Source: Escherichia phage vB_EcoS_Zar3M. From it: a stretch of DNA of 45,901 nt. This document shows positions 1 to 45,901 of this stretch, piece after piece. Below the pieces are notes generated by a model. The model was not told where the DNA came from. It saw only the letters and a program-made list of their open reading frames with translations, and did not search any database. Position numbers and translations under genes: made by a program. How positions within the stretch are numbered: position 1 is the first letter of the stretch; the number at the start of each line of letters is the position of its first letter. The DNA lies in sequence record NC_073065.1; one strand, 5' to 3'.

Positions 1-101
1 CAGCAGATAGCGATCAACTTTTTCATGCGCGTGATTAATATTGGTTGCATTCGGCCTGGCACCCTGCTATTTTGGTTGCACACCAACATGAGGACTGAAC
101 A

Positions 102-3288: not shown

Positions 3289-3384
3289 ATCTACCACCGC
3301 GGTTAATTCCGGGCTTTTTATTGCTTGACTTGCAACCAACATAGAGGCCATACTGCGACCAATCAACGAGAGGAGTAGTAAACT

Positions 3385-9548: not shown

Positions 9549-9870
9549 ATACGCGGCGATCGGACTGGTTATAGGTCTGGCAGTTGGATTCTGGCAGGGT
9601 GATTCCTACCGCGCAGGCGTAGTGGNGGNGGNGGCGCAANAAGNGCAAGCCCAANCCCAACGGCAGCAAANTAAAGTTGTGGAGCGCTCCGTGCAGGCCG
9701 AACAGGCCCGCGACGTGGAATACCGGACTATCACGAAAGAGGTTGTTAAATATGTTACGCGCCCTAACCGCCCTGATTGTAGTTTTGATGCTGAGCGCGT
9801 GCGGATCAAGCAGCGTGCCGTTGATGCCGCTAACGGAGTCGGCACTGCGACCGCCGTGCAAGTTCGATAA
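9541..9870 (+). CDS. i-spanin (Rz-like)
   Basis: GTG start after ACAGGGGG; N-terminal TM (IKYAAIGLVIGLAVGFW) followed by charged coiled-coil-like periplasmic region; contains an embedded +1-frame lipoprotein gene. Confidence 0.55.
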   Translation: MIKYAAIGLVIGLAVGFWQGDSYRAGVVXXXAQXXQAQXQRQQXKVVERSVQAEQARDVEYRTITKEVVKYVTRPNRPDCSFDAERVRIKQRAVDAANGVGTATAVQVR

Positions 9871-9982
9871 CCCGTCTGCGGACCCCGACGAAGATTTGAT
9901 GATTGACGTGAAAAATATGGAATGCGGGGCGAAGCTGAGGGCGCAAGTGCTGGATTTGCAGAAAATAATTCTGGGGCCGTGA
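9752..9982 (+). CDS. o-spanin (Rz1-like outer-membrane lipoprotein)
   Basis: ATG inside Rz in another frame; signal peptide plus lipobox LSAC (MLRALTALIVVLMLSACGSS), Pro-rich mature part; extends past Rz stop. Confidence 0.55.
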   Translation: MLRALTALIVVLMLSACGSSSVPLMPLTESALRPPCKFDNPSADPDEDLMIDVKNMECGAKLRAQVLDLQKIILGP

Positions 9983-9997
9983 TGGCCCCCTTTTATT
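9974..9997. terminator. bidirectional intrinsic terminator
   Basis: GGGGCC-GTGAT-GGCCCC followed by TTTTATT on + strand and AT-rich tail on - strand; lies between convergent Rz1 (+) and 9996..10760 (-). Confidence 0.6.
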
Positions 9998-10760
9998 AGC
10001 GCGGAATACCGCAGATTTCGTTTAACGTCTTCACGTCCAGCGCCACCGCCGTGGACTTCGGCTTATCCGGGTATGGAATAAACTGTTCAACTTCAGGCCA
10101 CGCCTTGATCAGCTTCTTATCGGTATTGTGCATATCAAGCACGCCGGTAACGGTTAGTTTGAACGCGTCATACTTAGCACGCAACTCACGTCGGGCATTG
10201 TCGTTACGGTCCAGGCGCTTGCAGAAATCATGATCCGCCGGGAAATCCGCACGACAGCGCGGCTTATAGATCGGCAGCGCTTTCCCATCCTCGTCCACTT
10301 CGCACACAGAAGCCAGCATTACTTCTTCGAACCCAGGTACAATATCGCCGAGATCGGGAGATAGCTTATTCATGTATTTATATTCCCAGTATCCGCGATG
10401 TACTCGGTATTGTCGTCCGTCACCGCTCAATGACAGTGTGCGCACATTTCCGCCTGCGTTGATTTCGAAAGTGGCGTCGTAAACGCTGCCGATGCCTTTT
10501 GGGCGGTCAGCGTTATAACTATACGTCGCCTTGTTGGTGTATACGCTTACTCCGTACATCTGCGACGGGTCGTCGCCGATTGCTTTAATGCGCGCGAGTA
10601 GCTCGGCGAAAGTGCGAATGCCTTCCGGCATACAGTCCAGCGTAATGGCGTACGCCAGGTCGCGCGAGTCCATCATGATGGATTTGGCTTCGGTCGCGAT
10701 TTCATGGTCGCGCAGGATGTTAGCCAGGATCAGGTTTTTAATGTCTTTTGTCAGTCTCAT
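9996..10760 (-). CDS. hypothetical protein (254 aa), reverse-strand moron gene
   Basis: Intact ORF on opposite strand inside late structural operon; protein-like composition; no motif I can name. Confidence 0.5.
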   Translation of the reverse strand: MRLTKDIKNLILANILRDHEIATEAKSIMMDSRDLAYAITLDCMPEGIRTFAELLARIKAIGDDPSQMYGVSVYTNKATYSYNADRPKGIGSVYDATFEINAGGNVRTLSLSGDGRQYRVHRGYWEYKYMNKLSPDLGDIVPGFEEVMLASVCEVDEDGKALPIYKPRCRADFPADHDFCKRLDRNDNARRELRAKYDAFKLTVTGVLDMHNTDKKLIKAWPEVEQFIPYPDKPKSTAVALDVKTLNEICGIPR

Positions 10761-10803
10761 TTTTGTGTCCTCGTTGTTGGGGCTTTCGCCCCGTTTGGTT
10801 TAG

Positions 10804-11211
10804 TTAAAGTGCTTCTAGAATCTCGTAAAACTTATTTGCCAGCGCTTGGCGGCGTTCGAATTTTTCAGTGATAACCAATTCCGGGCGGTTAAATAGCTTT
10901 GCGTGGGTGTTCCAATTGAGGATTTCCGTTTCCATTATTTTCTTCCGGTTGTAGTCGGTGTTTTTGATGCTAAATTCCTTGATAGCGTCATTAAGAAAAT
11001 CAGTCATACACTCAACGTCTGTTCTCTTAACTTCGAACGTACGGGCCTCGATTGGGCTATTTGTGCGAAGTACGACGACTCCGCCGTGGTAGGTGTCGAC
11101 TACCATATACTTATAAGTCACCCCATCCCACTCCGGATCGAAAGGGCGCCCAAATACGTCGTCGGCTTTCCACACTTTCTGGTACGGTGTTTCTTTGATT
11201 AATGTTGGCAT
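10804..11211 (-). CDS. hypothetical protein (135 aa), reverse-strand moron gene
   Basis: Intact ORF with ATG at 11211 preceded by AAGGAAAAACAAAATG; upstream promoter-like element containing ATTGGTTGCAC-TATATT. Confidence 0.5.
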   Translation of the reverse strand: MPTLIKETPYQKVWKADDVFGRPFDPEWDGVTYKYMVVDTYHGGVVVLRTNSPIEARTFEVKRTDVECMTDFLNDAIKEFSIKNTDYNRKKIMETEILNWNTHAKLFNRPELVITEKFERRQALANKFYEILEAL

Positions 11212-11212
11212 T

Positions 11213-11300
11213 TTGTTTTTCCTTCATGTCTCTGTTGGTGTGCAACCAATATAGTGCAACCAATACGCGGATTGCAAGCGAATTTTGCGATTATTTTTAT
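11213..11300 (-). promoter_or_regulatory. promoter-like element with tandem ATTGGTTGCAC motifs and conserved 40-bp box
   Basis: On - strand reads CTTGCAA-N8-ATTGGTTGCAC-TATATT-ATTGGTTGCACACC; shares ATAGTGCAACCAAT and TGCAAG(C/T)GAATTTTGC with 30281-30320. Confidence 0.4.
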
Positions 11301-11367: not shown

Positions 11368-12072
11368 ATGAAACTTACTAAAGCAGAATATGACGCGTTG
11401 CCGGAAGGTATGAAGGCGCTTTTTGTTGCCGATGGCGACGGGTATAAATCAACGTTCATGACCGCAGAAGAAGTACAGGCGGAAATCAAGGGTCTGAAAG
11501 ACAACAACGCTAAGCTGGTGAGCGAGAAGAAAGCANAAGCNGAACCCCNCCCNNAAGGGGNGNGCCTNGNNAAANANAAANAGGAAGCCNCCNCNCNCAA
11601 AAACGGNGACCTCGAAGCGATCGATAAGTCCTGGAAGGATAAGTTTGCGAAACACGAAGCAGATACATCGGGAAAAATCGAAGCCTACCGCAAGCAGATC
11701 CACGACCTAACCATCGGCAGCGCTGCCAAAGACCTGGCATCGAAGCTATTCGGTAAGAATGCGGGAATAATGCAACGTCACGTTATGGATCGCCTCACTC
11801 TGGAGGACGGCGAAGACGGCAGCTTGAAAGTGCGTGTCTTGCAGGATGGCAAACCGTCCGCGCTGACTATGGAAGAGCTTGAAAAAGAGTTCCGTAATAA
11901 CGCCGATTTTGCATCCGTTCTGGCTGGCACGCCAGCCGGTGGCGCGCCTAGCAAACCGACGCAGGTTGTCGAAGATGTGAAGTCGAAAATCACTATGGGC
12001 CATAGCTTCGGTATCACTGACCTTACGAAACAGGCGGGGGATATCATCGCGAAGATGGGCGACGACGAGTAA
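11368..12072 (+). CDS. scaffolding protein (putative)
   Basis: ATG at 11368 with GGGGGA RBS; charged, helical, low-complexity protein immediately upstream of major capsid gene. Confidence 0.55.
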   Translation: MKLTKAEYDALPEGMKALFVADGDGYKSTFMTAEEVQAEIKGLKDNNAKLVSEKKAXXEPXXXGXXXXKXKXEAXXXKNXDLEAIDKSWKDKFAKHEADTSGKIEAYRKQIHDLTIGSAAKDLASKLFGKNAGIMQRHVMDRLTLEDGEDGSLKVRVLQDGKPSALTMEELEKEFRNNADFASVLAGTPAGGAPSKPTQVVEDVKSKITMGHSFGITDLTKQAGDIIAKMGDDE

Positions 12073-16846: not shown

Positions 16847-17160
16847 AAGNGGGACGTCTCCCTTTTTCCCGCCCTNCAAAACTNCATACCTNCTCAATTC
16901 CNCTGCATAAACNCAAAACGGGNCAGGNGGGNCNNCCCNCTTTNTCCCNCCCCNCAAATGCGCATACCTATGCAGTTTTAATGCATAAAGTAAGCGGGAC
17001 AGAAAGCGGGACAGAAAANNGGGGGGAAAAAGNGGGANAGCACCCCGTCCCCGCCAGTGCTGCCGCGGTTTTCAGCCGATCGGGACAGGCGGGACAACCC
17101 CCAGTNTTTCANACTAGACGGGGGTCAACGGCCCCCCTCGTNTGAGACTGAANAAGGTTT
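16847..17160. repeat. iteron-rich non-coding element, copy A (GCGGGACA octamers plus conserved stem-loop)
   Basis: At least 5 direct GCGGGACA-type boxes (16994, 17006, 17032 masked, 17080 variant, 17089), inverted CGTCCCCGC, stem-loop AGACGGGGG...CCCCCCTCGT flanked by CAGTCT/AGACTG; about 35 bp nearly identical to 45620-45655. Confidence 0.6.
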
Positions 17161-26969: not shown

Positions 26970-27231
26970 TTCTACACTCCACAATTTCAAATTTATCTTC
27001 GCTTTGCCATCTGTGAACGAAAGTTACAAATTTCTGTGATGGGGCTACTCGGTATTGTTTTTCGCCAAATCGGTTTTCACGCACCGCGTTTAGTTTAACA
27101 GGGTAGCTATCGTTTACGGGGAATGTTTTAACCGCATATTGGCCTACGCAATCGATAGCCTTGTAGTTGCCGTCTGGCGATGCGGAGCAACCGGACAAAA
27201 GAACCGCACAAATCATAATTAAAGTTTTCAT
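26962..27231 (-). CDS. small outer-membrane lipoprotein (Cor/Llp-like superinfection exclusion candidate)
   Basis: ATG at 27231 with AGGAG RBS; signal peptide plus lipobox MKTLIMICAVLLSGCSASP; divergent from tail fibre gene. Confidence 0.55.
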   Translation of the reverse strand: MKTLIMICAVLLSGCSASPDGNYKAIDCVGQYAVKTFPVNDSYPVKLNAVRENRFGEKQYRVAPSQKFVTFVHRWQSEDKFEIVECRNE

Positions 27232-27311
27232 GGTATCATCTCCTATATTTGGTTGAGTTTTAGTATTACACCGCTCGATCAAGAATGCAACCAATTTACG
27301 AGGATTTAGCT

Positions 27312-29135
27312 ATGGCAGCGGGCACACTATCCGTAACGAATAACAGCAAGGCGGTTGTAGGGGTCGGGACAACGTTTACCGCGTTTAACGCTGGCGACTT
27401 CTTAACGCTGGTGGTAGGGCAAGTCCCCTACACCGTAGCAATCGCGTCCGTTGAAAGCGAAACCGCGCTTACGCTGGTGTTACCGTTCGACGGCCCAACG
27501 GCAACCGGCCTTGCGTGGGATGGCGTTAAGCGCGATACCATGTCACTGGCGACGATGGGCGTAACCGTACAGGCACAGAAAGCATTGCGCTTGATGCTTG
27601 CAGATGAAAACAACTGGCGTGCAATCTTCGGCGACGCTGAAGAAATAACCGTGACGTTGCCTAACGGGCAGGTAATGCAGGGTATGTCATGGGGATATCT
27701 GTCGCAGTTGATGAAACAGGTCGACCCAGTTGAGATGCGCAACCTGCAACAGCAAGCCGCCGCATCTGAAGCAGCCGCGCAGGGATACCGGAACGAGGCC
27801 GAAGGCTTCAAGACCGAGACGGCGGGCATTCGCGACGCCACCAATCAGATTAAGGCGGATACGCAGGCGATCCACGACGCCACTAATACCATCAAGACGC
27901 AGACTGACCTGATTAAGACTGATACTCAGGCCATCAAGGACCAGACGAACCAGATCAAGACTGACACCGGCGTTATTCGTGACGAAGCCAATATGGCGAA
28001 GACTGACGCGCAGGCCGCCAGCGCTGCCGCGCAGGGATTTCGCGATCAGGCCGAAGAATGGGCGCAAAGCGTAAACCCCGACAATCTGCTAACCAAATCC
28101 GGCAACCTCGCCGGGCTTGCGGACAAAAGTGCGTCGTGGGCTAACCTTATGCCGTCAGGACCGCTTCGCGTAGGTGCGGACCCCGTAAACACCCTGGACG
28201 CTGCGACTAAAGGGTGGGTGTGGCGCGGTCTTGATGACGTGGGGCTTTGGGGTTTACGCAATAACTACGCTTCAGAACCCGCAGGGGGTGCAGAAGTATA
28301 CGGCGGGCGCTTTGACTCCTCTGTGAACGTCGCAGGGACCGAAAAATACAGAATGTCGATACAGCTTCAGGGGCGTAATAACGTAGACGCCTGGACACGT
28401 TTGGCGACCGCTGACGTCCGCAGCATGGCGAACGCGGCGACGTGGGACTTTAAATATGATGGCAAGATTATTTTCAATAAGGGATTGAGTCCATCGTCCA
28501 CCTCGGCGTCGCCAGGTAATACCTACGTAACCCTTGCGAATACATGGATGGACAGCCAATACTCGGGACACGTCGGCTTTGTTGGAGGCGGGGCGGGGAC
28601 GAGTGGTGGCGGGTGGCGTAACTTTATTTCGTTCGGCGCGCTGATCCACCCGCCCACCGGTAACTCGCACCCCCATGCTATGATTGCGCAGGTCTTTGAT
28701 TATGATTTGGCGTCCGGGACACAGCCTAACGGCGATAGCGTTCGAAACACTACATTCAACCCCGAAGCATACGATATCACCTTCGGCAACAACTTAGGGA
28801 CTGTTAACTATATTTTCGCAAAGTCCCCGGTATCCGATAGGGCGCTGAAGCATGATATCGCCCGGATCGATACTCAAGTTGCGTACGATAACGTTATGAC
28901 TATGGAGTACTCGTCCTTTGTTTATAACTACGACAAAAAAGAGACGGTTAGACGTGGTTTTATCGCGCAGCAGTTGGAAGAGATCGACCCGCAGTATGTC
29001 CGCAAGTACACCAACGCAACCGGTAAAGAGTTTCTGGCATTAGATGAAAACGTCCTACTACTTGACCTAATCGCGACTGTTCAGCATTTGGCGGCGAAGG
29101 TTGAGGCGTTAGAAAGTAAGTTAGCGGAGAAATGA
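27312..29135 (+). CDS. tail fibre protein with C-terminal intramolecular chaperone (peptidase S74-like) domain
   Basis: ATG at 27312 with AGGA RBS; coiled-coil heptad-like repeats (IKADTQAIHDATNTIKTQTDLIKTDTQAIKDQTNQIKTDTGVIRDEANMAKTDAQ); C-terminus DRALKHDIARIDTQVAYDNVMTMEYSSFVYNY...GFIAQQLEEIDPQYV typical of auto-cleaving chaperone domains. Confidence 0.75.
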   Translation: MAAGTLSVTNNSKAVVGVGTTFTAFNAGDFLTLVVGQVPYTVAIASVESETALTLVLPFDGPTATGLAWDGVKRDTMSLATMGVTVQAQKALRLMLADENNWRAIFGDAEEITVTLPNGQVMQGMSWGYLSQLMKQVDPVEMRNLQQQAAASEAAAQGYRNEAEGFKTETAGIRDATNQIKADTQAIHDATNTIKTQTDLIKTDTQAIKDQTNQIKTDTGVIRDEANMAKTDAQAASAAAQGFRDQAEEWAQSVNPDNLLTKSGNLAGLADKSASWANLMPSGPLRVGADPVNTLDAATKGWVWRGLDDVGLWGLRNNYASEPAGGAEVYGGRFDSSVNVAGTEKYRMSIQLQGRNNVDAWTRLATADVRSMANAATWDFKYDGKIIFNKGLSPSSTSASPGNTYVTLANTWMDSQYSGHVGFVGGGAGTSGGGWRNFISFGALIHPPTGNSHPHAMIAQVFDYDLASGTQPNGDSVRNTTFNPEAYDITFGNNLGTVNYIFAKSPVSDRALKHDIARIDTQVAYDNVMTMEYSSFVYNYDKKETVRRGFIAQQLEEIDPQYVRKYTNATGKEFLALDENVLLLDLIATVQHLAAKVEALESKLAEK

Positions 29136-29140
29136 GAATA

Positions 29141-29164
29141 AGGGGCCATACGGCCCCTTTTTTA
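29141..29164. terminator. bidirectional intrinsic terminator between late (+) and replication (-) operons
   Basis: AGGGGCC-ATAC-GGCCCCT followed by TTTTTT; convergent stops on both sides. Confidence 0.65.
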
Positions 29165-29737
29165 GTTTGAGTTTTCCCAGTCCATTTTGCGCCGCACCAG
29201 CGGGCTTTCAAAGTATTCCTTGCCCTCAACTTCCACCAAAGGCCAGTCGTTCACAATCACGTACGGCTCCGCGATATCCTCAATCACGCCGTGCGCGCTT
29301 TGCGGCCCTAACGACACACCAACCAGGATAACCCCGGCAACTCGACGAGTGAGATACTCGCGAGCGCAACGTGCCTCAACCAGCCCCCTACGGATGCCGC
29401 TGGTGGCCTTAACCTCGTACGCCCAAACGGCATCAATCATATGTTCCCGGAAGTCGGGACCAGACTTTACCTTGCGTTTGCCGACCATGATAATATCGCC
29501 GCGGTCGATAGTGTTAGCGCTAAACAGGCCGGTACGCATTAGCAAACCTTGAGGGATACAGCTACGCCCGCCCGCCTGCCCTTCTAGGTACATGCCCGCA
29601 AACATCTCACCCAGCACACCTACAAGGCGGCTTTGTTTGCACGCGTCAGACTTTAAGCGCCACTGTTCAAACTCTATGCTTGCGATCATTGCTGCGAGGT
29701 GGAATTGTTTACCGGTTATTTCATATTCGCCGTACAT
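29162..29737 (-). CDS. hypothetical protein, possible PD-(D/E)XK nuclease
   Basis: GPDF...(18 aa)...YEVKA resembles a PD-(D/E)xK core; weak assignment. Confidence 0.35.
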   Translation of the reverse strand: MYGEYEITGKQFHLAAMIASIEFEQWRLKSDACKQSRLVGVLGEMFAGMYLEGQAGGRSCIPQGLLMRTGLFSANTIDRGDIIMVGKRKVKSGPDFREHMIDAVWAYEVKATSGIRRGLVEARCAREYLTRRVAGVILVGVSLGPQSAHGVIEDIAEPYVIVNDWPLVEVEGKEYFESPLVRRKMDWENSN

Positions 29738-29778
29738 TGTGAATCCCTCATTGATGCGGGCCGAAGCCCGCGATTAAA

Positions 29779-30231
29779 TTATTTAAGTGCGCCAGTCACC
29801 AGTGTTTTTTCCATGTTGCGGAAATCTTCCGGCGTCATGAGGATTTTGGACCCATCTTCGCCGGTGAGCACGACCATAGGCCGGGCGTCTTGATCTGCGG
29901 TGGGGCAACCTTTGAGGCTTTCAAACTGTTCTGCCGTTGTGTCGATCTGAATCTCGTCATGCACGGGCATGTAAGACTCGCCCAGCAGGGAGGCATACGC
30001 CACCAGGTCCACGATGTTATCTTCCTGGTGCTTACGGTGCTGTCGCACCAGCTTCAGGCAGATCAGGAAGGTCCAGGCTTCTTGCTCGGTCAGGTCGCGA
30101 CCGGTAAGCGCGTTAAACACGGCAGCGATTTGCTTAGCGCTGCGTTCCTCTTTCGCGTTGTCATAGCCGTTTTCTTTTCCGCGCTGTTCCATAGTGGTGG
30201 CGGCGTTTTTGCAGTATTCGTATGCTTTCAT
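29779..30231 (-). CDS. hypothetical protein (150 aa), all-alpha acidic
   Basis: Intact ORF with AAAAAGGAAAACACCATG start context; upstream promoter-like box with palindrome GCAACCAATTTATTGGCTGC. Confidence 0.45.
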   Translation of the reverse strand: MKAYEYCKNAATTMEQRGKENGYDNAKEERSAKQIAAVFNALTGRDLTEQEAWTFLICLKLVRQHRKHQEDNIVDLVAYASLLGESYMPVHDEIQIDTTAEQFESLKGCPTADQDARPMVVLTGEDGSKILMTPEDFRNMEKTLVTGALK

Positions 30232-30294
30232 GGTGTTTTCCTTTTTCGGGGAGGCCGTATTGCCTCCCTGCGCGTTAACTATAGTGCAACCAAT

Positions 30295-30765
30295 TTATTG
30301 GCTGCAAGTGAATTTTGCAACGTTTATTGCGTAAATATTCGGGACCAGATCNNTGNNCGCCCGACGAATTGCCGCGATGTTCTTCTCGCAATCTTCAATG
30401 ATGACCAGTTCCGACACGTCCGCATAGCAGACCATTTTGAACACGGCGCACGCCTTAAACTCAGGCGGTGGGGTGTCGTCCAGCATGTGGCGCATAAACA
30501 ACCGACCGACAGGGAAGACCTCCAGTTGCTCGGCGGTAGTCTCCCAGCATTCTCGCTGCCGGTTTGTCAGATACGCGATCTCGAAGCCTTGCTCTTTATA
30601 CATGCTCAACAGCGGCAGCATATCCATGTTAAGGTCTTCGCGTACGTGCGCTTTGTGCCACTTCGCCCAAAATGTTGATTTGGTTTTTATACCTGGAACC
30701 AGGTCGGCGCGTGCATCACTCGAACCATTAATAACGCCATCAAGATCACAAATCAGTAGTTTTAT
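30295..30765 (-). CDS. HAD-superfamily hydrolase (phosphatase/nucleotidase-like), non-ATG start
   Basis: HAD motif I KLLICDLDGVI lies 46 codons upstream of the first ATG (30627); motif II IAYLTNRQ, motif IV-like IIEDCEKN; only in-frame start is ATA at 30763-30765 overlapping the upstream TAA. Confidence 0.5.
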   Translation of the reverse strand: MKLLICDLDGVINGSSDARADLVPGIKTKSTFWAKWHKAHVREDLNMDMLPLLSMYKEQGFEIAYLTNRQRECWETTAEQLEVFPVGRLFMRHMLDDTPPPEFKACAVFKMVCYADVSELVIIEDCEKNIAAIRRAXXDLVPNIYAINVAKFTCSQ

Positions 30766-30986: not shown

Positions 30987-31452
30987 GTAGTACTCCTTCG
31001 CTCATTATTTCAATTCGTGCGCTGCCGATTGGCGGCGCTTCGTCAAAGATTATCAATTGCTGGCACTTGTTATTGCTCGGCCCGACTTCACCGGTGACAG
31101 CGTGTATAAATCTAATCCGCCAGTCCAGAAGAATTATCAGGTTTGCCGCCTTCCGGGCCAGCTTCGCCCACTTCGTCGACGTGTCCTGATTCAGTAGCAT
31201 GACAGTCTGGCGTCCGTGCGCCGCGCATTCCACCCACGGCAGCGGATCGGAATACGGCGGGTTGCACCACTTCCACCCTTTCAACTCTGCCCAGTCCACA
31301 TCAAGCGCGCTGTGCTCTGCCGTGAAGTAACGCGGTAGCAGATGATTGGCGTCGCTTGCCGCCATATCGTAACGGAATCGGTACTTCCGACGAAGCGGTT
31401 TAAATAAAGCTGGCGGCGTGCGCCAGCTATCTTTTTGCTTATTCTTCTGCAT
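30967..31452 (-). CDS. DNA N6-adenine methyltransferase (phage Dam-type)
   Basis: N-terminal WRTPPALF, DMAASDANHL and NPPY catalytic motif (WCNPPYSD), matching the small phage T1-type Dam family. Confidence 0.7.
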   Translation of the reverse strand: MQKNKQKDSWRTPPALFKPLRRKYRFRYDMAASDANHLLPRYFTAEHSALDVDWAELKGWKWCNPPYSDPLPWVECAAHGRQTVMLLNQDTSTKWAKLARKAANLIILLDWRIRFIHAVTGEVGPSNNKCQQLIIFDEAPPIGSARIEIMSEGVLHEYLNR

Positions 31453-31903
31453 GACCTGGATCTATCGCATAAAGTGGACTCTTATTGCCGGTTTTCATAA
31501 CGCGCTGGACGCGCTTTGACTCCTCGGCGCTCAGTTGGCGCGCATTCGTGTATAACCTGCCGTTTGTATGTATGCGCCACGCTATCAGCACCAGATCTTT
31601 CCGGTCGATCTTAGACTGGCGGCCCTTCGGTCGCACGTACGCCTCGGCCCGTTTGCAATGCTCGCGCAGACCTTCGGCAGTGATGCGGTTTAGTTGAACG
31701 GTGGTTGTGTACCCGGTGCGCTGCATAATACCCATCAACTCATACAGCAGTTCGAAGCGCTCCTCTAATTCCTTGCGCGCCTTCTCCTCGCCTTCATATC
31801 GCGCATGATAGGTGTCTGCCAGCGCGCTAACACGTTCGGCCTGTTCTCGGGCTTCGAGGCATTGCGCGGCCCAGTATGCTTTNTCGAAAAATAATGATCT
31901 CAT
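31439..31903 (-). CDS. hypothetical protein (154 aa)
   Basis: Listed ORF begins at TTG; likely true start is ATG at 31903 (GGAGACGACACATG). Helical, charged protein. Confidence 0.45.
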   Translation of the reverse strand: MRSLFFXKAYWAAQCLEAREQAERVSALADTYHARYEGEEKARKELEERFELLYELMGIMQRTGYTTTVQLNRITAEGLREHCKRAEAYVRPKGRQSKIDRKDLVLIAWRIHTNGRLYTNARQLSAEESKRVQRVMKTGNKSPLYAIDPGHAEE

Positions 31904-31990
31904 CGTGTCGTCTCCAGGTATTAAAAAAGGGCGTCCAAACCGGACACCCTCAATATAACGCAACCAATATGATTATGCAACCAATTTACG
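31904..31990 (-). promoter_or_regulatory. promoter-like region with two ATTGGTTGC motifs
   Basis: On - strand: CGTAAATTGGTTGCATAATCATATTGGTTGCGTTATATT then RBS; shares 17/18 nt (ATGCAACCAATTTACGA) with 27285-27302. Confidence 0.4.
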
Positions 31991-32303
31991 AATAAAAGTT
32001 CGGGTCGCGTGCGACGTCTACCAGGTAAAGGTTACTTATGCGGTTGCCGTAGTGCCCTGGAGTGCGCTGGCGGCACACAACGGCGAAGCCGGGAGGGATT
32101 GTATTGCCCGTCTCAATAATCCACGCGACGCGTGCGCCAGACAGCGTCTTTCCGTTGCATTCGATACGTGTTCCGCCATCGGCAGTATTGATGTTGCCAA
32201 TCTTGCAGCCGGTGGACTTCAGACGGATGACGCCGGTTTTGCTGTCGTAGGTGAATAGCTGGTTAGTCATTGCGACCGAAAAGTCGATGGCTTCGAATGT
32301 CAT
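31986..32303 (-). CDS. HNH endonuclease-like protein (intact copy)
   Basis: Pattern LFTYDSKTG...GKTLSGARVAWIIETG..IPPG...NRISNLYLV resembles HNH_3-type phage endonucleases, though the canonical DH dyad is not obvious; ATGA overlap with methyltransferase. Confidence 0.45.
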   Translation of the reverse strand: MTFEAIDFSVAMTNQLFTYDSKTGVIRLKSTGCKIGNINTADGGTRIECNGKTLSGARVAWIIETGNTIPPGFAVVCRQRTPGHYGNRISNLYLVDVARDPNFYS

Positions 32304-32995
32304 TTTAAATTTTCCTCGTTAACCGCTATCGCGAAGCCGCGCGGAGTGAGCGACCGGATTAATTTTGTGCGGGCTGATTTGCCTCCGAGGCGACTATACT
32401 GCTTCGAGTACCCTTTTTCAACGAAAACAGGTCTCTTCTCTGGCATACGGAAGCCGTTGCCGGTCCATAAGCAGGTCAGCTTCGGATATGAATCGCGAGC
32501 GTTGATGTATTCCGGGAAGAGCGGGTGTACGTCATCCTCCGGCAGATATCCCCCATACTCCCACGGGTCGAATGAGTGATCCGGCTTGCGCCACTGGGTG
32601 GAAAGCACACTGCGCGGATTCTCAATCATATATGGCACTTCAAAGAAGTCACCTAAGTAAGCGGCAATCTTCGCGGNGCGCACCGCCTTAAGCTGAAAGG
32701 CAGGGTCTTTAGCACGCTTGCGAGGGAAAGCGGGTGCACCGCTCACTGCCAGATCCGTACACGGCGGGAATGCATAAATGATATCCGGCGTGCCGAAATC
32801 ACCATTCATCGCGCGGTCCACGAAGTCCAGATCGATAAACTCATTACGATATCGGATACCGCGCCCATAAATCCGGTAGTCCAGGTACGAGCCGTGATCG
32901 GCTTCGGAGTAGTTGAAGCAATAACACTTATGCCCCATCTCGGCAGCACGCTCAATCATCAAGCCGCTGCCGTCGAATAATGACCAGATAATCAT
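32300..32995 (-). CDS. DNA (cytosine-5)-methyltransferase-like protein, copy 1
   Basis: Motif I-like SLFDGSG, PC motif AFPPCTDLAVSG, ENV-like MIENP; 231 aa (short for a C5-MTase). Confidence 0.6.
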   Translation of the reverse strand: MIIWSLFDGSGLMIERAAEMGHKCYCFNYSEADHGSYLDYRIYGRGIRYRNEFIDLDFVDRAMNGDFGTPDIIYAFPPCTDLAVSGAPAFPRKRAKDPAFQLKAVRXAKIAAYLGDFFEVPYMIENPRSVLSTQWRKPDHSFDPWEYGGYLPEDDVHPLFPEYINARDSYPKLTCLWTGNGFRMPEKRPVFVEKGYSKQYSRLGGKSARTKLIRSLTPRGFAIAVNEENLK

Positions 32996-33264
32996 ATGCG
33001 CGCCTTTTTAGCTTTCATGTATTCCATCAAGTCGTCCTGGATATCTCGCTTACTGTCTCGACGCTCTGCGACCAGTTCATCCAGTGTGCCGCGCGCCTGG
33101 ATAATGTAGACGAATACCGGACGAGGGTGTCCGGCTTGCATCTGGCGAACTGGCCCGATACGTTCAACTGCCCGTCTCAATAATCCACGCGACGCGTGCG
33201 CCAGACAGCGTCTTTCCGTTGCATTCGATACGTGTTCCGCCATCGGCAGTATTGATGTTGCCAA
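32992..33264 (-). pseudogene. helicase 3' fragment (duplication-derived ORF)
   Basis: C-terminal 57 aa identical to helicase C-terminus (ERIGPVRQMQAGHPRPVFVYIIQARG...KAKKARI); N-terminal part is out-of-frame junction sequence. Confidence 0.5.
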
Positions 33265-33367
33265 TCTTGCAGCCGGTGGACTTCAGACGGATGACGCCGG
33301 TTTTGCTGTCGTAGGTGAATAGCTGGTTAGTCATTGCGACCGAAAAGTCGATGGCTTCGAATGTCAT
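33164..33367 (-). pseudogene. truncated HNH endonuclease-like gene (duplication-derived)
   Basis: First 66 aa identical to 31986..32303, truncated at the duplication junction and lacking the NRISNL region. Confidence 0.5.
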
Positions 33368-34059
33368 TTTAAATTTTCCTCGTTAACCGCTATCGCGAAG
33401 CCGCGCGGAGTGAGCGACCGGATTAATTTTGTGCGGGCTGATTTGCCTCCGAGGCGACTATACTGCTTCGAGTACCCTTTTTCAACGAAAACAGGTCTCT
33501 TCTCTGGCATACGGAAGCCGTTGCCGGTCCATAAGCAGGTCAGCTTCGGATATGAATCGCGAGCGTTGATGTATTCCGGGAAGAGCGGGTGTACGTCATC
33601 CTCCGGCAGATATCCCCCATACTCCCACGGGTCGAATGAGTGATCCGGCTTGCGCCACTGGGTGGAAAGCACACTGCGCGGATTCTCAATCATATATGGC
33701 ACTTCAAAGAAGTCACCTAAGTAAGCGGCAATCTTCGCGGNGCGCACCGCCTTAAGCTGAAAGGCAGGGTCTTTAGCACGCTTGCGAGGGAAAGCGGGTG
33801 CACCGCTCACTGCCAGATCCGTACACGGCGGGAATGCATAAATGATATCCGGCGTGCCGAAATCACCATTCATCGCGCGGTCCACGAAGTCCAGATCGAT
33901 AAACTCATTACGATATCGGATACCGCGCCCATAAATCCGGTAGTCCAGGTACGAGCCGTGATCGGCTTCGGAGTAGTTGAAGCAATAACACTTATGCCCC
34001 ATCTCGGCAGCACGCTCAATCATCAAGCCGCTGCCGTCGAATAATGACCAGATAATCAT
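33364..34059 (-). CDS. DNA (cytosine-5)-methyltransferase-like protein, copy 2
   Basis: Identical to 32300..32995; ATGA overlap with full-length helicase stop. Confidence 0.6.
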   Translation of the reverse strand: MIIWSLFDGSGLMIERAAEMGHKCYCFNYSEADHGSYLDYRIYGRGIRYRNEFIDLDFVDRAMNGDFGTPDIIYAFPPCTDLAVSGAPAFPRKRAKDPAFQLKAVRXAKIAAYLGDFFEVPYMIENPRSVLSTQWRKPDHSFDPWEYGGYLPEDDVHPLFPEYINARDSYPKLTCLWTGNGFRMPEKRPVFVEKGYSKQYSRLGGKSARTKLIRSLTPRGFAIAVNEENLK

Positions 34060-35480
34060 ATGCGCGCCTTTTTAGCTTTCATGTATTCCATCAAGTCGTC
34101 CTGGATATCTCGCTTACTGTCTCGACGCTCTGCGACCAGTTCATCCAGTGTGCCGCGCGCCTGGATAATGTAGACGAATACCGGACGAGGGTGTCCGGCT
34201 TGCATCTGGCGAACTGGCCCGATACGTTCAACGATCTGCGAAAAGTGCTCAAAGTTCCAGGTATCGGNGAAGATTGCCNGGNGNTGTCCTCCGTCCTGCA
34301 AGTTAAGGCCGTGGCCTGCCGATGCCGGGTGTGCAAACATGATGGGGATCTCGCCTCTGTTCCACGCTTCCATATCCTTATTGCCCTGCTTACCTTTACC
34401 CAACGCAACGCCGTGCGGAAATTTCTTCTTAAGACGTGCCAGGTCATGCTTGTACTGATACGCAACGAGCAACGGCGCACCGTTCAACTCCTCCACGATA
34501 CTTTCCAGCGCGTCCAGCTTCGCGTCGTGAATCTTCACCCACTCGTCGGTCCGTTCGCCGTCTTCGTCCACCTTATACACGGCACCGGACGCAAGCTGAA
34601 GGCACTTGATGGTCTTCGACGCAGCGTTCGCCGCCTCTACGGTCCCGCTTTCCAGTTCTGCAAATAGCTCCGCTTCAAACTGATCGTAAATCTTGCGGGC
34701 TTTCTTCGGCAGGTCCACAACAACCGGCGTATAGATTGGCTTGTCGCATCCGAAGTATTCAGCCGCGTCAACGGTTAGTGATACGTCAGACAGGCGTTGT
34801 TGTATTTCTTTCTCGGAGTTCTTTAGCGGAGCGTGCTGCATCGTGAAGCTGCCAGGCTTAACAGGCTTGCTAATGAACCAGCGATCGGTGAATGCCTTAT
34901 AGCTACTGCCGAGGCGTTCGCCACCGTCGACAAACCACGTCTGACCCCATAAGTCTTTCAGCCCGTTTGGTGCTGGTGTGCCTGTAAGGTTAATCCAGCG
35001 CTTGACGTGTTTATGTGCAATCGCTGCCAGTGCGCGGGCGCGCTTGCTCCCCTGCTTGCTACGATAGCCTTTCAGCTTAGTCGATTCATCGGCAACAACG
35101 ACCGTAAAGGGCCACGCATCGCCGTAATATTCGACCAGCCACTCGACCACATCGTAGTTAACACAAACCACGTTAGCGTCGCTATCAAGCGCGGCAATAC
35201 GGTCCTTCTCCGGTCCGGTGCCGTCTACGACCAGCAGGGNTGAGAACCNCCATTTCTCCTGTTCCGGGGGCCATGTACCCGACGCAACACGCAGCGGGGC
35301 CAGCACCAGTACGCGGTCCTCATGATGGGACAGGATGCCAGTCTGGAACATTTTGTTCAGCGCCCACATTGTCGCGCCGGTTTTACCCGACCCCATTGTC
35401 GCCCAGATATTGCATCGCTTATGCTTGAGGATGAACGCGGTAATCAACTTCTGATATTCGCGGCGTCGGAATCGTGCCAT
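34056..35480 (-). CDS. SNF2/DEAD-like superfamily 2 helicase
   Basis: Walker A MGSGKTG, DEAH-like VVVADEST, C-terminal helicase domain; likely start is ATG at 35480 (MARFRRREYQ), not the upstream listed start. Confidence 0.75.
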   Translation of the reverse strand: MARFRRREYQKLITAFILKHKRCNIWATMGSGKTGATMWALNKMFQTGILSHHEDRVLVLAPLRVASGTWPPEQEKWXFSXLLVVDGTGPEKDRIAALDSDANVVCVNYDVVEWLVEYYGDAWPFTVVVADESTKLKGYRSKQGSKRARALAAIAHKHVKRWINLTGTPAPNGLKDLWGQTWFVDGGERLGSSYKAFTDRWFISKPVKPGSFTMQHAPLKNSEKEIQQRLSDVSLTVDAAEYFGCDKPIYTPVVVDLPKKARKIYDQFEAELFAELESGTVEAANAASKTIKCLQLASGAVYKVDEDGERTDEWVKIHDAKLDALESIVEELNGAPLLVAYQYKHDLARLKKKFPHGVALGKGKQGNKDMEAWNRGEIPIMFAHPASAGHGLNLQDGGXXXAIFXDTWNFEHFSQIVERIGPVRQMQAGHPRPVFVYIIQARGTLDELVAERRDSKRDIQDDLMEYMKAKKARI

Positions 35481-35484
35481 GTCT

Positions 35485-35703
35485 TTATTCCGCCTTTTTC
35501 CAGACTTCGGTTTCACTGTTCCAGTTCCTTTTTGTGGCGTCGTAGTTGGTGGCGTGTCCGATGTGGACACCGGTAGCCCGGAAGCTCTTAAATTTTTGCC
35601 AGCACACCGTCAACGGCAGCGGATCATTCATGCCCGCGATAAACCATACGCGATCGCCCGGTTTACATTCGCCCAGCTTGGTGAGTCGGTAATGTTCTTT
35701 CAT
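35485..35703 (-). CDS. hypothetical protein (72 aa)
   Basis: ATG with GGGAGA RBS right after a terminator-like hairpin; stop 5 nt before helicase start. Confidence 0.4.
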   Translation of the reverse strand: MKEHYRLTKLGECKPGDRVWFIAGMNDPLPLTVCWQKFKSFRATGVHIGHATNYDATKRNWNSETEVWKKAE

Positions 35704-35721
35704 CGTCATGTCTCCCAAAAA

Positions 35722-35745
35722 TGGCGGGACAAGCCCGCCGTATTA
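35722..35745 (-). terminator. terminator-like hairpin (- strand)
   Basis: On - strand GGCGGGC-TTGT-CCCGCC followed by ATTTTT, just after the stop of 35747..35920. Confidence 0.4.
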
Positions 35746-35746
35746 A

Positions 35747-35920
35747 TTATTTTTGTTCTGCACGGTAGCGGCGCTGCCGTTCGCGCTCTTTCTTATTGCG
35801 GCACGATTTGCACTCTGCCCGATACCCGTCTGGACTGCGCGCAGTCTTACCGGTGTATTTGTGGAACTGGGATAGCGGCTTTACACAGCCGCAATTACTA
35901 CAACGTTTTTCTTCAATCAT
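35747..35920 (-). CDS. small zinc-ribbon protein (57 aa)
   Basis: ATG at 35920 with AGGA RBS; Cys4 pattern CSNCGC...CKSC and basic C-terminus; the longer listed ORF has a hydrophobic non-coding-like N-extension. Confidence 0.4.
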   Translation of the reverse strand: MIEEKRCSNCGCVKPLSQFHKYTGKTARSPDGYRAECKSCRNKKERERQRRYRAEQK

Positions 35921-35960
35921 CTCTAAAATCCTCGATATGGCTAACCGGCACACTATACCG

Positions 35961-36239
35961 TTATGCGACCAATTCAGCAACCAATAAATCGCAGTCGGAT
36001 ATGTTGTCGATAACGCGAACGTCAGCACCGCGGCGGGCCATTCGCTCATGTTCACGTACCTGGTGCGGCTTCGGTTTTCCTCCGGGGCGCTTCACTTCGA
36101 CGAACACTATTTTGCCGTTGATGATAATAATCAGGTCGGGCGCACCCGCGCGCCCCTCCCATGCCAGTTTGCGGCAGAATCCGCCTACCTCTTTCACCCG
36201 TCGCTTCAGGTGACTTTGAATCTTGCCCTCTGGTGTCAT
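35961..36239 (-). CDS. VRR-NUC domain nuclease
   Basis: Motif GAPDLIIIINGKIVFVEVKRPGG (PD...E-V-K); start at 36239 or at 36311 overlapping polymerase 3' end. Confidence 0.6.
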   Translation of the reverse strand: MTPEGKIQSHLKRRVKEVGGFCRKLAWEGRAGAPDLIIIINGKIVFVEVKRPGGKPKPHQVREHERMARRGADVRVIDNISDCDLLVAELVA

Positions 36240-41329: not shown

Positions 41330-41517
41330 TATTCCACCCTTGAAAATTGAGCAATGTAATAGTCGTGTTTAACATTGGCCCGCTTCGCGGCTTCGTTCAT
41401 GGTAGCCGCCAGTCCTCGAGCTTGCATCCAGCAGCAATTCCAGTTTTGATTCATAACAATTTCTGGTTGCTCGTCGCCGGTAATACGGCAACGAAATAAA
41501 ACAAAGAATATAGCCAT
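41329..41517 (-). CDS. hypothetical protein (62 aa)
   Basis: Short ORF in operon context; stop overlaps DUF2800 start. Confidence 0.3.
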   Translation of the reverse strand: MAIFFVLFRCRITGDEQPEIVMNQNWNCCWMQARGLAATMNEAAKRANVKHDYYIAQFSRVE

Positions 41518-41769
41518 TTATTTTGTCTCCCAGCGGTCAATTGTTTTTGCTTCGGATGCAACTGCGAAGCGAACATATTCCAGATTGGAATCCGCCCAAA
41601 TATAAAAGTCGGGGTTAGTAAAGGTGGTGCGCTTAATTTGCGCGGGGGTGTTACGGCGTTTATCTATTACGGCAACGCGTGACTGAAAGCTGCCGATGCG
41701 TTCGAATAGCCAATAGTACGGGCGCTGGTCGCGGGAGTCCACCGCCTCGATTAGCGTGAAGCGTGCCAT
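41518..41769 (-). CDS. hypothetical protein (83 aa)
   Basis: ORF with AGAGGACGAGACAATG start context immediately after a terminator. Confidence 0.4.
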   Translation of the reverse strand: MARFTLIEAVDSRDQRPYYWLFERIGSFQSRVAVIDKRRNTPAQIKRTTFTNPDFYIWADSNLEYVRFAVASEAKTIDRWETK

Positions 41770-41782
41770 TGTCTCGTCCTCT

Positions 41783-41809
41783 AAAAATAGGCCCGCAGAT
41801 TAGCGGGCC
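41783..41809 (-). terminator. intrinsic terminator (- strand)
   Basis: On - strand GGCCCGC-TAATCT-GCGGGCC followed by TATTTTT. Confidence 0.5.
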
Positions 41810-41817
41810 GGAATATA

Positions 41818-41943
41818 TTAATCTTCACCGCCGAGTTGTCTATAAACCTCGTCCGGGTCGTCGCCTCTTTCTTCGCAGAAGGCGGTGAACGCCGCCCAAT
41901 TTTCTGCTATGAAATCGAGCATGATTCTCATTTCATAGTCCAT
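41818..41943 (-). CDS. small acidic hypothetical protein (41 aa)
   Basis: Unlisted ORF MDYEMRIMLDFIAENWAAFTAFCEERGDDPDEVYRQLGGED between acidic repeat protein and terminator. Confidence 0.25.
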   Translation of the reverse strand: MDYEMRIMLDFIAENWAAFTAFCEERGDDPDEVYRQLGGED

Positions 41944-41947
41944 GATA

Positions 41948-42463
41948 TTAATCTTCCAGTTCGAAATAGGTTTCGACGATTTCTTTTAGCTCTTTGTGGA
42001 AGTCTTCGACGTCGTCATCTTCCAGCTTGGCGATTGATTTGATCTCGAACGATTCCAGCAGGTCGTCGAATTCGTCGTTCGCATCGTCGTCATCACCACC
42101 GGCGATAATCGCGGCATACTGTTTGATTTCGTCGCGCATCTCCGCCAGCGGATCGGCATCTTTCTTACCTTTGCCTTTCGCCGGTGCTTTCTTAGACTTA
42201 GCCGGTTTTTCGTCTTCGGCATCGTCGTCGTCATCTTCTACGACTTCTTTTTTAGCCTTACCTTTCGCCGGTGCTTTTTTAGCTTTAGCCGGTTTTTCGT
42301 CTTCGGCGTCATCGTCGTCATCTTCGACAACTTCTTTTTTGGCCTTAGACGGCTTCTTGTCTTCCTGTTTACCAACGGCAGCGCCAACGGTTTCATAATG
42401 CTTTGCAATGGTTTCCAGTGCTACTACGCCGCGAGTGATCAGGTTTACGATTTGCTCAAACAT
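41948..42463 (-). CDS. highly charged tandem-repeat protein (171 aa)
   Basis: ATG at 42463 with GGAGATATACATG; contains a 2x tandem repeat KKEVVEDDDDDAEDEKPAK(A/S)KKAPAKGK (DNA direct repeat about 60 bp at 42200-42330) plus acidic C-terminal region. Confidence 0.5.
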   Translation of the reverse strand: MFEQIVNLITRGVVALETIAKHYETVGAAVGKQEDKKPSKAKKEVVEDDDDDAEDEKPAKAKKAPAKGKAKKEVVEDDDDDAEDEKPAKSKKAPAKGKGKKDADPLAEMRDEIKQYAAIIAGGDDDDANDEFDDLLESFEIKSIAKLEDDDVEDFHKELKEIVETYFELED

Positions 42464-45546: not shown

Positions 45547-45619
45547 ATTTTTAGTGTTTTTATCTGGTCGTATTGGTTGCCGTGTAGTGTGTATATAATG
45601 AATAGTTATGCAATAAAAC

Positions 45620-45790
45620 TGCATAAAGTGAGCGGGACAGAAAGCGGGACAAACAAGGGGCGGGACAAAGCGGGACAGCGCCCCCGTCCCGCCCCGGATG
45701 GCGCGGCCTAGAGAGGAGCGGGACAGCGGGACAAAACCCCAGTCTTTCAGACTAGACGGGGGTCGATGGCCCCCCTCGTCTGAGACTGAA
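45620..45790. repeat. iteron-rich non-coding element, copy B (GCGGGACA octamers plus conserved stem-loop)
   Basis: Six direct GCGGGACA boxes (45632, 45644, 45660, 45670, 45718, 45726) and inverted CGTCCCGC (45685-45692); stem-loop CAGTCTTTCAGACTAGACGGGGGTCGATGGCCCCCCTCGTCTGAGACTG; homologous to 16980-17156. Confidence 0.65.
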
Positions 45791-45901
45791 TAAAATCCGG
45801 GGATTGCAAATTACACGGNAGCATNACGCGAAGTGCGGTCGCGGATGAACTAGGCAACCAATGCAAACCGCATTACGCTGAGTGAAAAATGCGGTTTGCA
45901 G

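Follow-up and report, generated by a model that had tools for sequence, protein, structure and literature searches.

Two adjacent reverse-strand genes, here called nmad5 and orf135, form a small cassette in the genome of Escherichia phage vB_EcoS_Zar3M (NC_073065.1), the 45,901 nucleotides (nt) of which were analyzed as one stretch, referred to below as the window. They lie within the head-gene region, in which the order is terminase, portal (DUF4055), head-morphogenesis protein, Rz/Rz1, the two reverse genes, scaffold, and major capsid protein (Gp13-like). A first-pass annotation of the window described two intact genes of 254 and 135 amino acids (aa) between Rz/Rz1 and the scaffold gene, equipped with a promoter-like element and a bidirectional terminator of their own, and all of this is borne out. 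Both open reading frames (ORFs) start with ATG, contain no N, and have a Shine–Dalgarno sequence 9–10 nt upstream (GAGG and AAGGA); spanin ORFs lie to the left, both annotated as Rz-like spanins in relatives, with the scaffold gene to the right, and the promoter-like site and terminator hairpin could both be located (Table 1). Neither ORF is a chance occurrence, because the 254-aa product matches a Pfam family at E = 2e-56 and the 135-aa product has full-length homologues at 52–92% identity in Escherichia, Serratia, and Erwinia phages. Taken as sequence features, these observations support the view that the two genes make up a transcription unit of their own, divergent in orientation, which runs from a predicted promoter to a bidirectional terminator.

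The 254-aa product was initially thought to have no assignable motif, which is incorrect. Its residues 1–253 align with positions 1–206 of the 206-position Pfam profile PF18757 at 191.6 bits against a cut-off of 27; it also matches PHROG 1965 (E = 7e-61), and a Foldseek search of BFVD returned significant matches to Nmad5 proteins only. On the strength of these matches, the protein is a full-length member of the Nmad5 family. All signature motifs of the family are present, namely an N-terminal MRLT..I...I..N, an internal T-x-x-K-L-x-x-A-W-P-E, and a C-terminal L-N-x-x-[CI]-G-[LI]-P. An exhaustive phmmer search yielded 91 representative clusters, which, apart from a few short fragments, are stand-alone proteins of ~110–250 aa with the match reaching near the C-terminus. 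Across 40 diverse members, L217, W221, P222, L246, N247, and G251 are invariant and G104, G113, P229, and P253 nearly so, while the best-conserved polar positions are R2, N14, T213, E223, and N247; K216 is a lysine in 62% of members. In the AlphaFold model (predicted local distance difference test, pLDDT, 74; predicted template modeling score, pTM, 0.74), N- and C-terminal helices form a helical core, with a beta insertion, small and variable, and a short helix at the C-terminus. The model was built on an alignment of 18 mostly close sequences, and an extra homologue search from a member at 35% identity added only two. A structure search with the predicted model found no relative in the PDB and no match to any solved fold. 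The family alignment offered no stretch of sufficient conservation for a scan of bacterial genomes, and a narrower one detected no relative among 185,579 representative genomes.

A 3.5-kb query around the cassette matched 157 phage records, nearly all from Escherichia phages of the genus Dhillonvirus, the HK578-like group of E. coli siphoviruses. The best match is vB_EcoS_PTXU06 (MK373789, 45,904 bp), in which the coordinates are the same as in the window. By this similarity, the window is a Dhillonvirus genome with PTXU06 as its nearest relative. A tblastn search located Nmad5 at ≥80% identity in 142 phage records and at 60–80% in six more, all of them Dhillonvirus-type genomes, and about 148 records have nmad5 in this place, among them those of species at 63–65% identity; where the gene is annotated in Dhillonvirus, a spanin gene flanks it on one side and the scaffold gene on the other. 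The genus thus has nmad5 as a fixed component and not as a sporadic insertion. Its GC content (52.4%) is not distinct from that of the genome (54.4%).

In contrast, orf135 is sporadic and GC-poor (45.1%). Profile and structure-prediction searches, proposed in the first-pass annotation for both products, placed the larger in the Nmad5 family and gave for the smaller no Pfam, PHROG, NCBIfam, or PADLOC family and a low-confidence model (pLDDT 68, N-terminal strands and three C-terminal helices). The NCBIfam and PADLOC searches (the latter with E up to 1) also returned no family for the 254-aa protein, and an Rfam search gave no match inside the cassette. A weak match of orf135 to Cas10d did not survive a profile search. 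Homologues of orf135 were found only in PTXU06, HK578, SM_W22, the Serratia phage Opt-148 group, Erwinia phage Snitter, and four metagenomic clusters. In the Opt-148 group, the homologues (52–56% identity) lie directly past the tail-tip gene, and in Snitter the homologue is found among small ORFs without an assigned function.

Comparison of Dhillonvirus genomes shows that orf135 is inserted into the 5′ leader of nmad5 and is absent or replaced in close relatives. The site between leader and nmad5 acts as a slot, which is empty in some Dhillonviruses and in others is occupied by one of four or more unrelated genes. Counted approximately as records at ≥80% identity, with the remaining records empty or unclassified, the occupants are a PHROG 24635 protein of about 104–122 aa (about 61 records), a single-domain beta-clamp-like protein (about 16), orf135 (5 records, equal to 3 distinct Dhillonviruses), and a 53-aa ORF (4). 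The clamp-like occupant of the Shigella phage EP23 type (L009:2353-2919) is a 172-aa protein resembling the DnaN beta-clamp, with a match to Pfam PF02767 at E = 7e-4 that falls below the cut-off; it matches PHROGs 3007 and 947, and relatives of it are common among siphoviruses of Salmonella, Klebsiella, and Vibrio.

The boundaries of the slot are conserved. In phages with an empty slot, the arrangement is TTGCAA-18-TATATT-GGTTGCACACCAACAACGAGGACACACAAATG, the ATG being the nmad5 start, and the leader runs on as ...ACCAACAACGAGGACACACAAATG directly into nmad5; the promoter therefore belongs to nmad5. The window shares this promoter and the leader as far as its 15th nt, after which come a ribosome-binding site, orf135, the junction AACTAAACCAAACGGGGCGAAAGCCCCAACAACGAGGACACAAAAATG, and nmad5. 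This junction, with its GAAA-loop hairpin, is common to orf135 and two other, unrelated slot genes. The hairpin (10778–10793; CGGGGCGAAAGCCCC on the − strand) has a ΔG of −11.5 kcal/mol and no U tract, and the junction reads as a terminator-like site on the + strand. Cargo is thus swapped between conserved flanks behind the nmad5 promoter, such that orf135 is imported cargo and not a functional partner of Nmad5. Its sporadic occurrence, mobility, foreign composition, and promoter-proximal location suggest that its product is most likely an accessory factor for host takeover or counter-defense.

The promoter-like site and leader are kept in 10 of 10 IMG/VR Dhillonvirus loci and are recognizable in one relative at 65% identity; the site is given weight because of this conservation, not because of its score. 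The same leader start also occurs 3′ of another promoter (window 70–96), and the promoter build TTGCAR-N6-ATTGGTTGCAC-TATAnT recurs at window 30284. At the opposite end, the terminator sits where Rz1 and nmad5 converge, their stop codons being 13 bp apart; it has tails CTTTTATT (+) and AGAATTATTT (−) and a ΔG of about −14.5 (+) and −15.0 (−) kcal/mol, and is annotated likewise in the PTXU06 record. Its T tract is interrupted on the − strand, and the efficiency of termination in that direction is only predicted.

The predicted promoter is overlapped by a motif that recurs throughout the phage. The 12-mer TATTGGTTGCAC has 14 copies in the window at ≤2 mismatches, compared with 3.2 expected, and none of 100 shuffles reaches 14; the 9-mer TTGGTTGCA has nine exact copies, every one intergenic. 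The motif either provides a TTGCAY −35 hexamer or occupies the spacer against a TATAnT −10 hexamer. It may define a family of promoters or be bound by a regulator, and as a shared intergenic element it links the cassette to a putative phage-wide regulatory scheme. Sites of the TTGGTTGCA type, often paired, are located at 39–81, 603–614, 3330–3341, 11240–11265, 27285–27296, 30284–30307, 31958–31986, 35975–35986, and 45571–45582.

Table 1. Features of the nmad5–orf135 locus and copies of the phage-wide motif (window coordinates)
Feature	Position	Strand	Details
Rz/Rz1 pair, left of cassette	i-spanin ORF ends 9870; overlapping ORF 9752-9982		Overlapping ORF 76 aa, with lipobox LMLSAC
Bidirectional intrinsic terminator	9973-9989	both	GGGGCC-N5-GGCCCC; predicted to serve the Rz1 gene (+) and the Nmad5 operon (−)
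nmad5	9996..10760	−	254 aa; ATG; Pfam PF18757; wild-type K216
Inter-ORF junction	10761..10803	−	GAAA-loop hairpin, then nmad5 ribosome-binding site; 3′ boundary of exchangeable slot
orf135	10804..11211	−	135 aa; ATG; soluble, acidic (pI 5.75); rare slot occupant
Operon 5′ leader	11212..11247	−	GGTTGCACACCAACA, then orf135 ribosome-binding site; slot insertion point just past ACCAACA
Two tandem exact copies of the 12-mer TATTGGTTGCAC	11240..11265	−	14-nt spacing; overlap spacer, −10 hexamer, and predicted start
Sigma-70-type promoter-like site	11277..11248	−	TTGCAA-18-TATATT; score 9/12
Head scaffolding gene, right of cassette	11368-12072		Followed by major capsid gene (Pfam Gp13-like, E = 2e-60)
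Motif copies	39 and 70		Supply or adjoin promoter-like hexamers
Motif copy	27285		Ahead of reverse locus past tail-tip gene
Motif copy	30284		Supplies or adjoins promoter-like hexamers
Motif copies	31958 and 31975		Ahead of presumed anti-Tmn homologue and Dam methylase
Motif copy	35975		Ahead of gene where Bas85 and SM_S22 annotate a Lar-like restriction-alleviation gene

The best explanation, to which a probability of roughly 65% is assigned, is that the cassette is the Nmad5 operon of Dhillonvirus, a short leftward unit that opposes the head-gene operon and combines an exchangeable cargo slot with a non-enzymatic Nmad5. The host-type promoter, overlapped by two copies of the phage-wide motif, would drive transcription through the 5′ leader, orf135, the GAAA-loop hairpin, and nmad5 until it stops at the terminator hairpin, which would also end the oncoming Rz1 transcript. 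Genome comparison indicates that promoter, leader, nmad5, and terminator form the constant part of the unit within the genus and that genes are exchanged in the promoter-proximal slot with its conserved junctions. Nmad5 itself may bind a partner via the conserved helical core and the C-terminal L-N-x-x-C/I-G-L/I-P tail, and would most likely act in the sphere of replication or host takeover without chemically modifying DNA. K216, the site of escape from the Tmn defense system, falls within the family signature T-x-x-K-L-x-x-A-W-P-E. The unit is accordingly an ordinary conserved part of Dhillonvirus genomes, with a main gene already in the literature and a rare accessory gene.

Several points weigh against this explanation. 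By its score alone, the promoter does not exceed chance, shuffles predicting 2.7 such sites where 2 were found. Copies of the phage-wide motif are also found ahead of the reverse locus that follows the tail-tip gene, and some lie in orientations that do not suit a promoter; an inference of early expression from TTGGTTGCA was therefore rejected, and the timing of expression is not inferable from it. The Nmad5 family was named from its neighborhood with base-modification genes, an association that holds in Yuavirus. Positions R2, N14, T213, E223, and N247 are 78–100% conserved and, on sequence alone, may have a catalytic role. Because the structural model is moderate (pLDDT 74, with 18 mostly close sequences), a fold match may have been missed. 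Lastly, the stretch 9982–11253, which is free of substitutions relative to PTXU06, may be an artifact of the window assembly.

This last point concerns the window as a whole. Its alignment to MK373789 is gapless over 45,901 nt, with 2,326 non-N substitutions, mostly at third codon positions, and with 577 N's clustered within variable stretches. The substitution-free block extends from the terminator, which forms its left edge, to the promoter, and its flanks differ by about 5%. Further substitution-free blocks are found at 26970–29940, 35185–35960, and 41395–42163. Judging from this pattern, such blocks are either recent recombination tracts or the product of a consensus built on a PTXU06-like reference that filled uncovered variable regions. 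The cassette is independently present in PTXU06, HK578, SM_W22, and two IMG/VR contigs; therefore, the conclusions do not depend on the window assembly.

Functional evidence on nmad5 comes from work on Tmn, in which Dhillonvirus mutants that escape this defense were isolated (Yamashita et al. 2025, Commun Biol; PMC11846954). Escape was caused by K216E in Nmad5 of phage SM_A8, given as K296E in SM_S22 (PMC11846954). The deposited SM_S22 protein of 334 aa (CDS0006, L028:1506-2510) begins 80 codons early and overlaps the scaffold gene; thus, K296 corresponds to K216. Deletion of nmad5 is tolerated, the gene being dispensable for growth, and does not confer escape, while cloning of nmad5 in E. coli was not achieved, apparently owing to toxicity (PMC11846954). 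The window protein has K216 within the segment NTDKKLIKAWPE, identical to SM_A8 and SM_S22, and because of this identity the published K216E route to Tmn escape should transfer to this phage. The anti-defense relevance suggested for the cassette at first pass thus holds for the locus, in that published Tmn-escape mutations map to nmad5 in sister phages.

A second gene in the window touches the same system. Positions 31439–31903 (−) encode a 154-aa protein that is 79% identical to SM_S22 CDS0035, and the promoter region of this gene has two TTGGTTGCA-type motif copies. Between the Dam methylase and HNH genes, SM_S22 has CDS0035 whereas SM_A8 does not; on this basis, CDS0035 is presumed to be the anti-Tmn ORF35 of the literature under a wrong annotation as "DNA ligase". 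If CDS0035 is indeed ORF35, the phage has both elements of the published Tmn interplay.

Outside Dhillonvirus, nmad5 recurs on the opposite strand of head modules. A 62-kb contig (Logan SRR25399844, 61,978 bp) encodes a full-length Nmad5 at 35% identity together with a different portal (Phage_portal_3) and capsid (PF09950), in the same topology as here: terminase, portal, MuF, a DUF2514-family gene that is read as a spanin, an opposite-strand island, a Pa193_gp24-family gene in the scaffold position, and capsid. A second contig (L026) agrees with this arrangement. The island of this lineage (L023:6892-12322) comprises 5.4 kb and 15 small, mostly family-less genes including Nmad5, and its promoter is near consensus (TTGACG-17-TATATT). 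In a third head type (PHROG 264 capsid with a protease), Nmad5 and one small gene are convergent on the capsid gene. Occurrence in the head modules of three head-gene types therefore makes the placement old and recurrent and not the outcome of a recent insertion.

This recurrence has a bolder reading, which is considered unlikely, in which a non-enzymatic Nmad5 anchors an early-expressed counter-defense islet placed opposite-strand in siphovirus head modules. Slot cargo would be exchanged by recombination at fixed junctions (leader ACCAACA and GAAA hairpin), orf135 would encode a new anti-defense or host-takeover protein, and Nmad5 would contact Tmn sensing.

The Dhillonvirus operon reading and the islet reading share the premise that Nmad5 is probably a non-enzymatic accessory protein and not a DNA-modifying enzyme. 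The alignment of the 40 diverse members shows no evident conserved catalytic set, and the pattern of conservation looks more like a signature of fold and interface than like an active site. The genome has no hypermodification genes, that is, no kinase, aGPT-Pplase, or hydroxymethylase gene, and the modification genes nearest to nmad5 encode DNA methyltransferases of two kinds and lie at a distance of about 20 kb. The neighbors of nmad5 are instead spanin, scaffold, and capsid genes, so the association with base-modification genes after which the family was named does not hold at this locus; as that neighborhood is a contextual and not a sequence criterion, membership in the Nmad5 family stands.

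That Nmad5 is nonetheless a DNA base-modifying enzyme, with Tmn sensing or being affected by modified phage DNA, is quite unlikely. This is how the protein was treated in the Tmn study (PMC11846954), and, apart from the family name, the idea draws on Yuavirus and M6-like phages, where Nmad5 is found beside a 5-hydroxymethyldeoxyuridine (5-hmdU) DNA kinase, a thymidylate-synthase-like gene, and other genes of the cluster. However, the nmad5 deletion stays Tmn-sensitive and escape is obtained only by K216E (PMC11846954); a deletion that does not phenocopy K216E fits poorly with Tmn sensing a modification made by Nmad5. The protein also has no invariant catalytic set, enzyme-like fold, or PDB relative, and Dhillonviruses, lambdoid phages, and Guernseyvirinae all have Nmad5 without any hypermodification pathway. 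In the BASEL study, moreover, the 7-deazaguanine-modified Queuovirinae resisted type I and II restriction far better than Dhillonviruses did.

The first-pass annotation had called the cassette a classic moron, and this is correct for one gene only. Patchy presence at the same site and deviant base composition are properties of orf135 and not of nmad5, whereas a promoter and terminator of its own belong to the two-gene unit as a whole and not to orf135. Judged by distribution and composition, only orf135, not Nmad5, would be a moron in the classic sense. The genus is treated as lytic in the literature, and the expression of morons from a prophage state therefore does not apply. That the whole unit was inserted recently and travels between phages as a single self-contained piece is very unlikely, even though it has its own promoter-like site and terminator, its GC content is slightly under the genome mean, and the substitution-free block relative to PTXU06 spans exactly the unit from terminator to promoter (9982–11253). 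That block may be an assembly artifact, nmad5 keeps its position in about 148 records and in species at 63–65% identity, the arrangement recurs in lineages with other portal and capsid families, and orf135 is the only sporadic part of the unit.

Two further possibilities are barely credible. Adjacency and predicted co-transcription of orf135 and nmad5, together with the toxicity of Nmad5 when cloned alone (PMC11846954), could indicate a cognate pair, either an antidote with its toxic Nmad5 or two subunits, yet in most Dhillonviruses the slot is empty or holds unrelated genes, and no Nmad5 is annotated within about 3.5 kb of the orf135 homologues in the Serratia and Erwinia loci. A role for Nmad5 in head assembly or DNA packaging, suggested by its opposite-strand position near portal, MuF, scaffold, and capsid genes in modules of three head-gene types, is countered by the viability of the deletion mutant (PMC11846954), by predicted transcription from a host-type promoter against the late operon, by proteomics of Dhillonvirus EE09 lysates (24 phage proteins detected, none of Nmad5 size or position, a weak negative), and by the many family members located in replication or lambdoid pL operons. 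Among these, the Nmad5 gene of Klebsiella phage VLCpiS11a heads an operon of exonuclease, single-stranded DNA-binding protein, and DNA polymerase, that of Bas97 is flanked by a helicase and a Holliday-junction resolvase, and that of mEp235 lies in the pL operon with nun and cIII on either side. In Yuavirus the gene is within the thymidine-hypermodification cluster, and in IMG/VR contigs it adjoins a helicase-primase or thymidylate-synthase-like gene. A literature search found no phage transcriptome for the genus Dhillonvirus.

Other features of the window include a perfect (100%) tandem duplication of 1,064 bp (32105–33168 and 33169–34232) containing a 231-aa gene (PTXU06_00046 and 00048), the Bas85 and SM_S22 counterparts of which are annotated as DNA methyltransferases. 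PTXU06 likewise has two annotated copies, and the repeat may be a genuine duplication or an assembly artifact. An imperfect tandem repeat of 102 bp (88%; 42159–42260 and 42246–42347), upstream of the region ahead of the helicase-primase operon, could represent origin iterons. A dispersed repeat of 188 bp (79%) occupies 16969–17155 and 45607–45793.

On the Dhillonvirus operon reading, the working label of "DNA modification enzyme" in the only functional paper on nmad5 (PMC11846954) is put in question. What had been two "hypothetical protein" labels becomes a genus-wide Nmad5 operon with an exchangeable cargo slot. The defined slot and the argument for a non-enzymatic Nmad5 may be new, as neither appears in the literature consulted, although no search was aimed at earlier descriptions of the slot. 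Together with the larger island of the 62-kb lineage, the slot offers compact, well-delimited places in which to find new genes for host takeover or anti-defense.

Several known systems can be compared with the cassette. Morons of lambdoid phages, as described in the Hendrix-lab literature, are units of promoter, gene, and terminator inserted between conserved genes. Like these, orf135 occurs sporadically, differs in composition, and is inserted with conserved sequence on both sides; in contrast to them, it has no promoter of its own and borrows that of nmad5, and the hairpin downstream of it has no U tract. The Nmad5 proteins of Yuavirus and M6-like Pseudomonas phages belong to the same Pfam family (PF18757), and their C-terminal ~80 residues align with the window protein at 35–38% identity. 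However, they are ~186 aa long, do not have the central beta insertion, and are encoded inside a cluster of 5-hmdU kinase and thymidylate-synthase-like genes.

The Tmn trigger of phage T2 is the early protein RIIB, in which binding and activation are separable (PMC13001434). RIIB of T2/T4 and Nmad5 are both non-structural, and in both a single substitution alters the outcome with Tmn (PMC13001434, PMC11846954), but loss of RIIB leads to escape while loss of Nmad5 does not (PMC13001434, PMC11846954). Nmad5 as a RIIB analogue by homology was rejected (hhalign probability 0.3%). The closest comparison is with SM_A8 and SM_S22, whose Nmad5 proteins are orthologues with 89–90% identity to the window protein (that of SM_A8 is also 254 aa, at 89%). 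Here too nmad5 lies between Rz1 and the scaffold gene, and K216 and the surrounding TDKKLIKAWPE are identical. The three phages differ in the slot, which is empty in SM_S22, holds a 104-aa gene of the PHROG 24635 type in SM_A8, and holds the rare 135-aa gene in the window.

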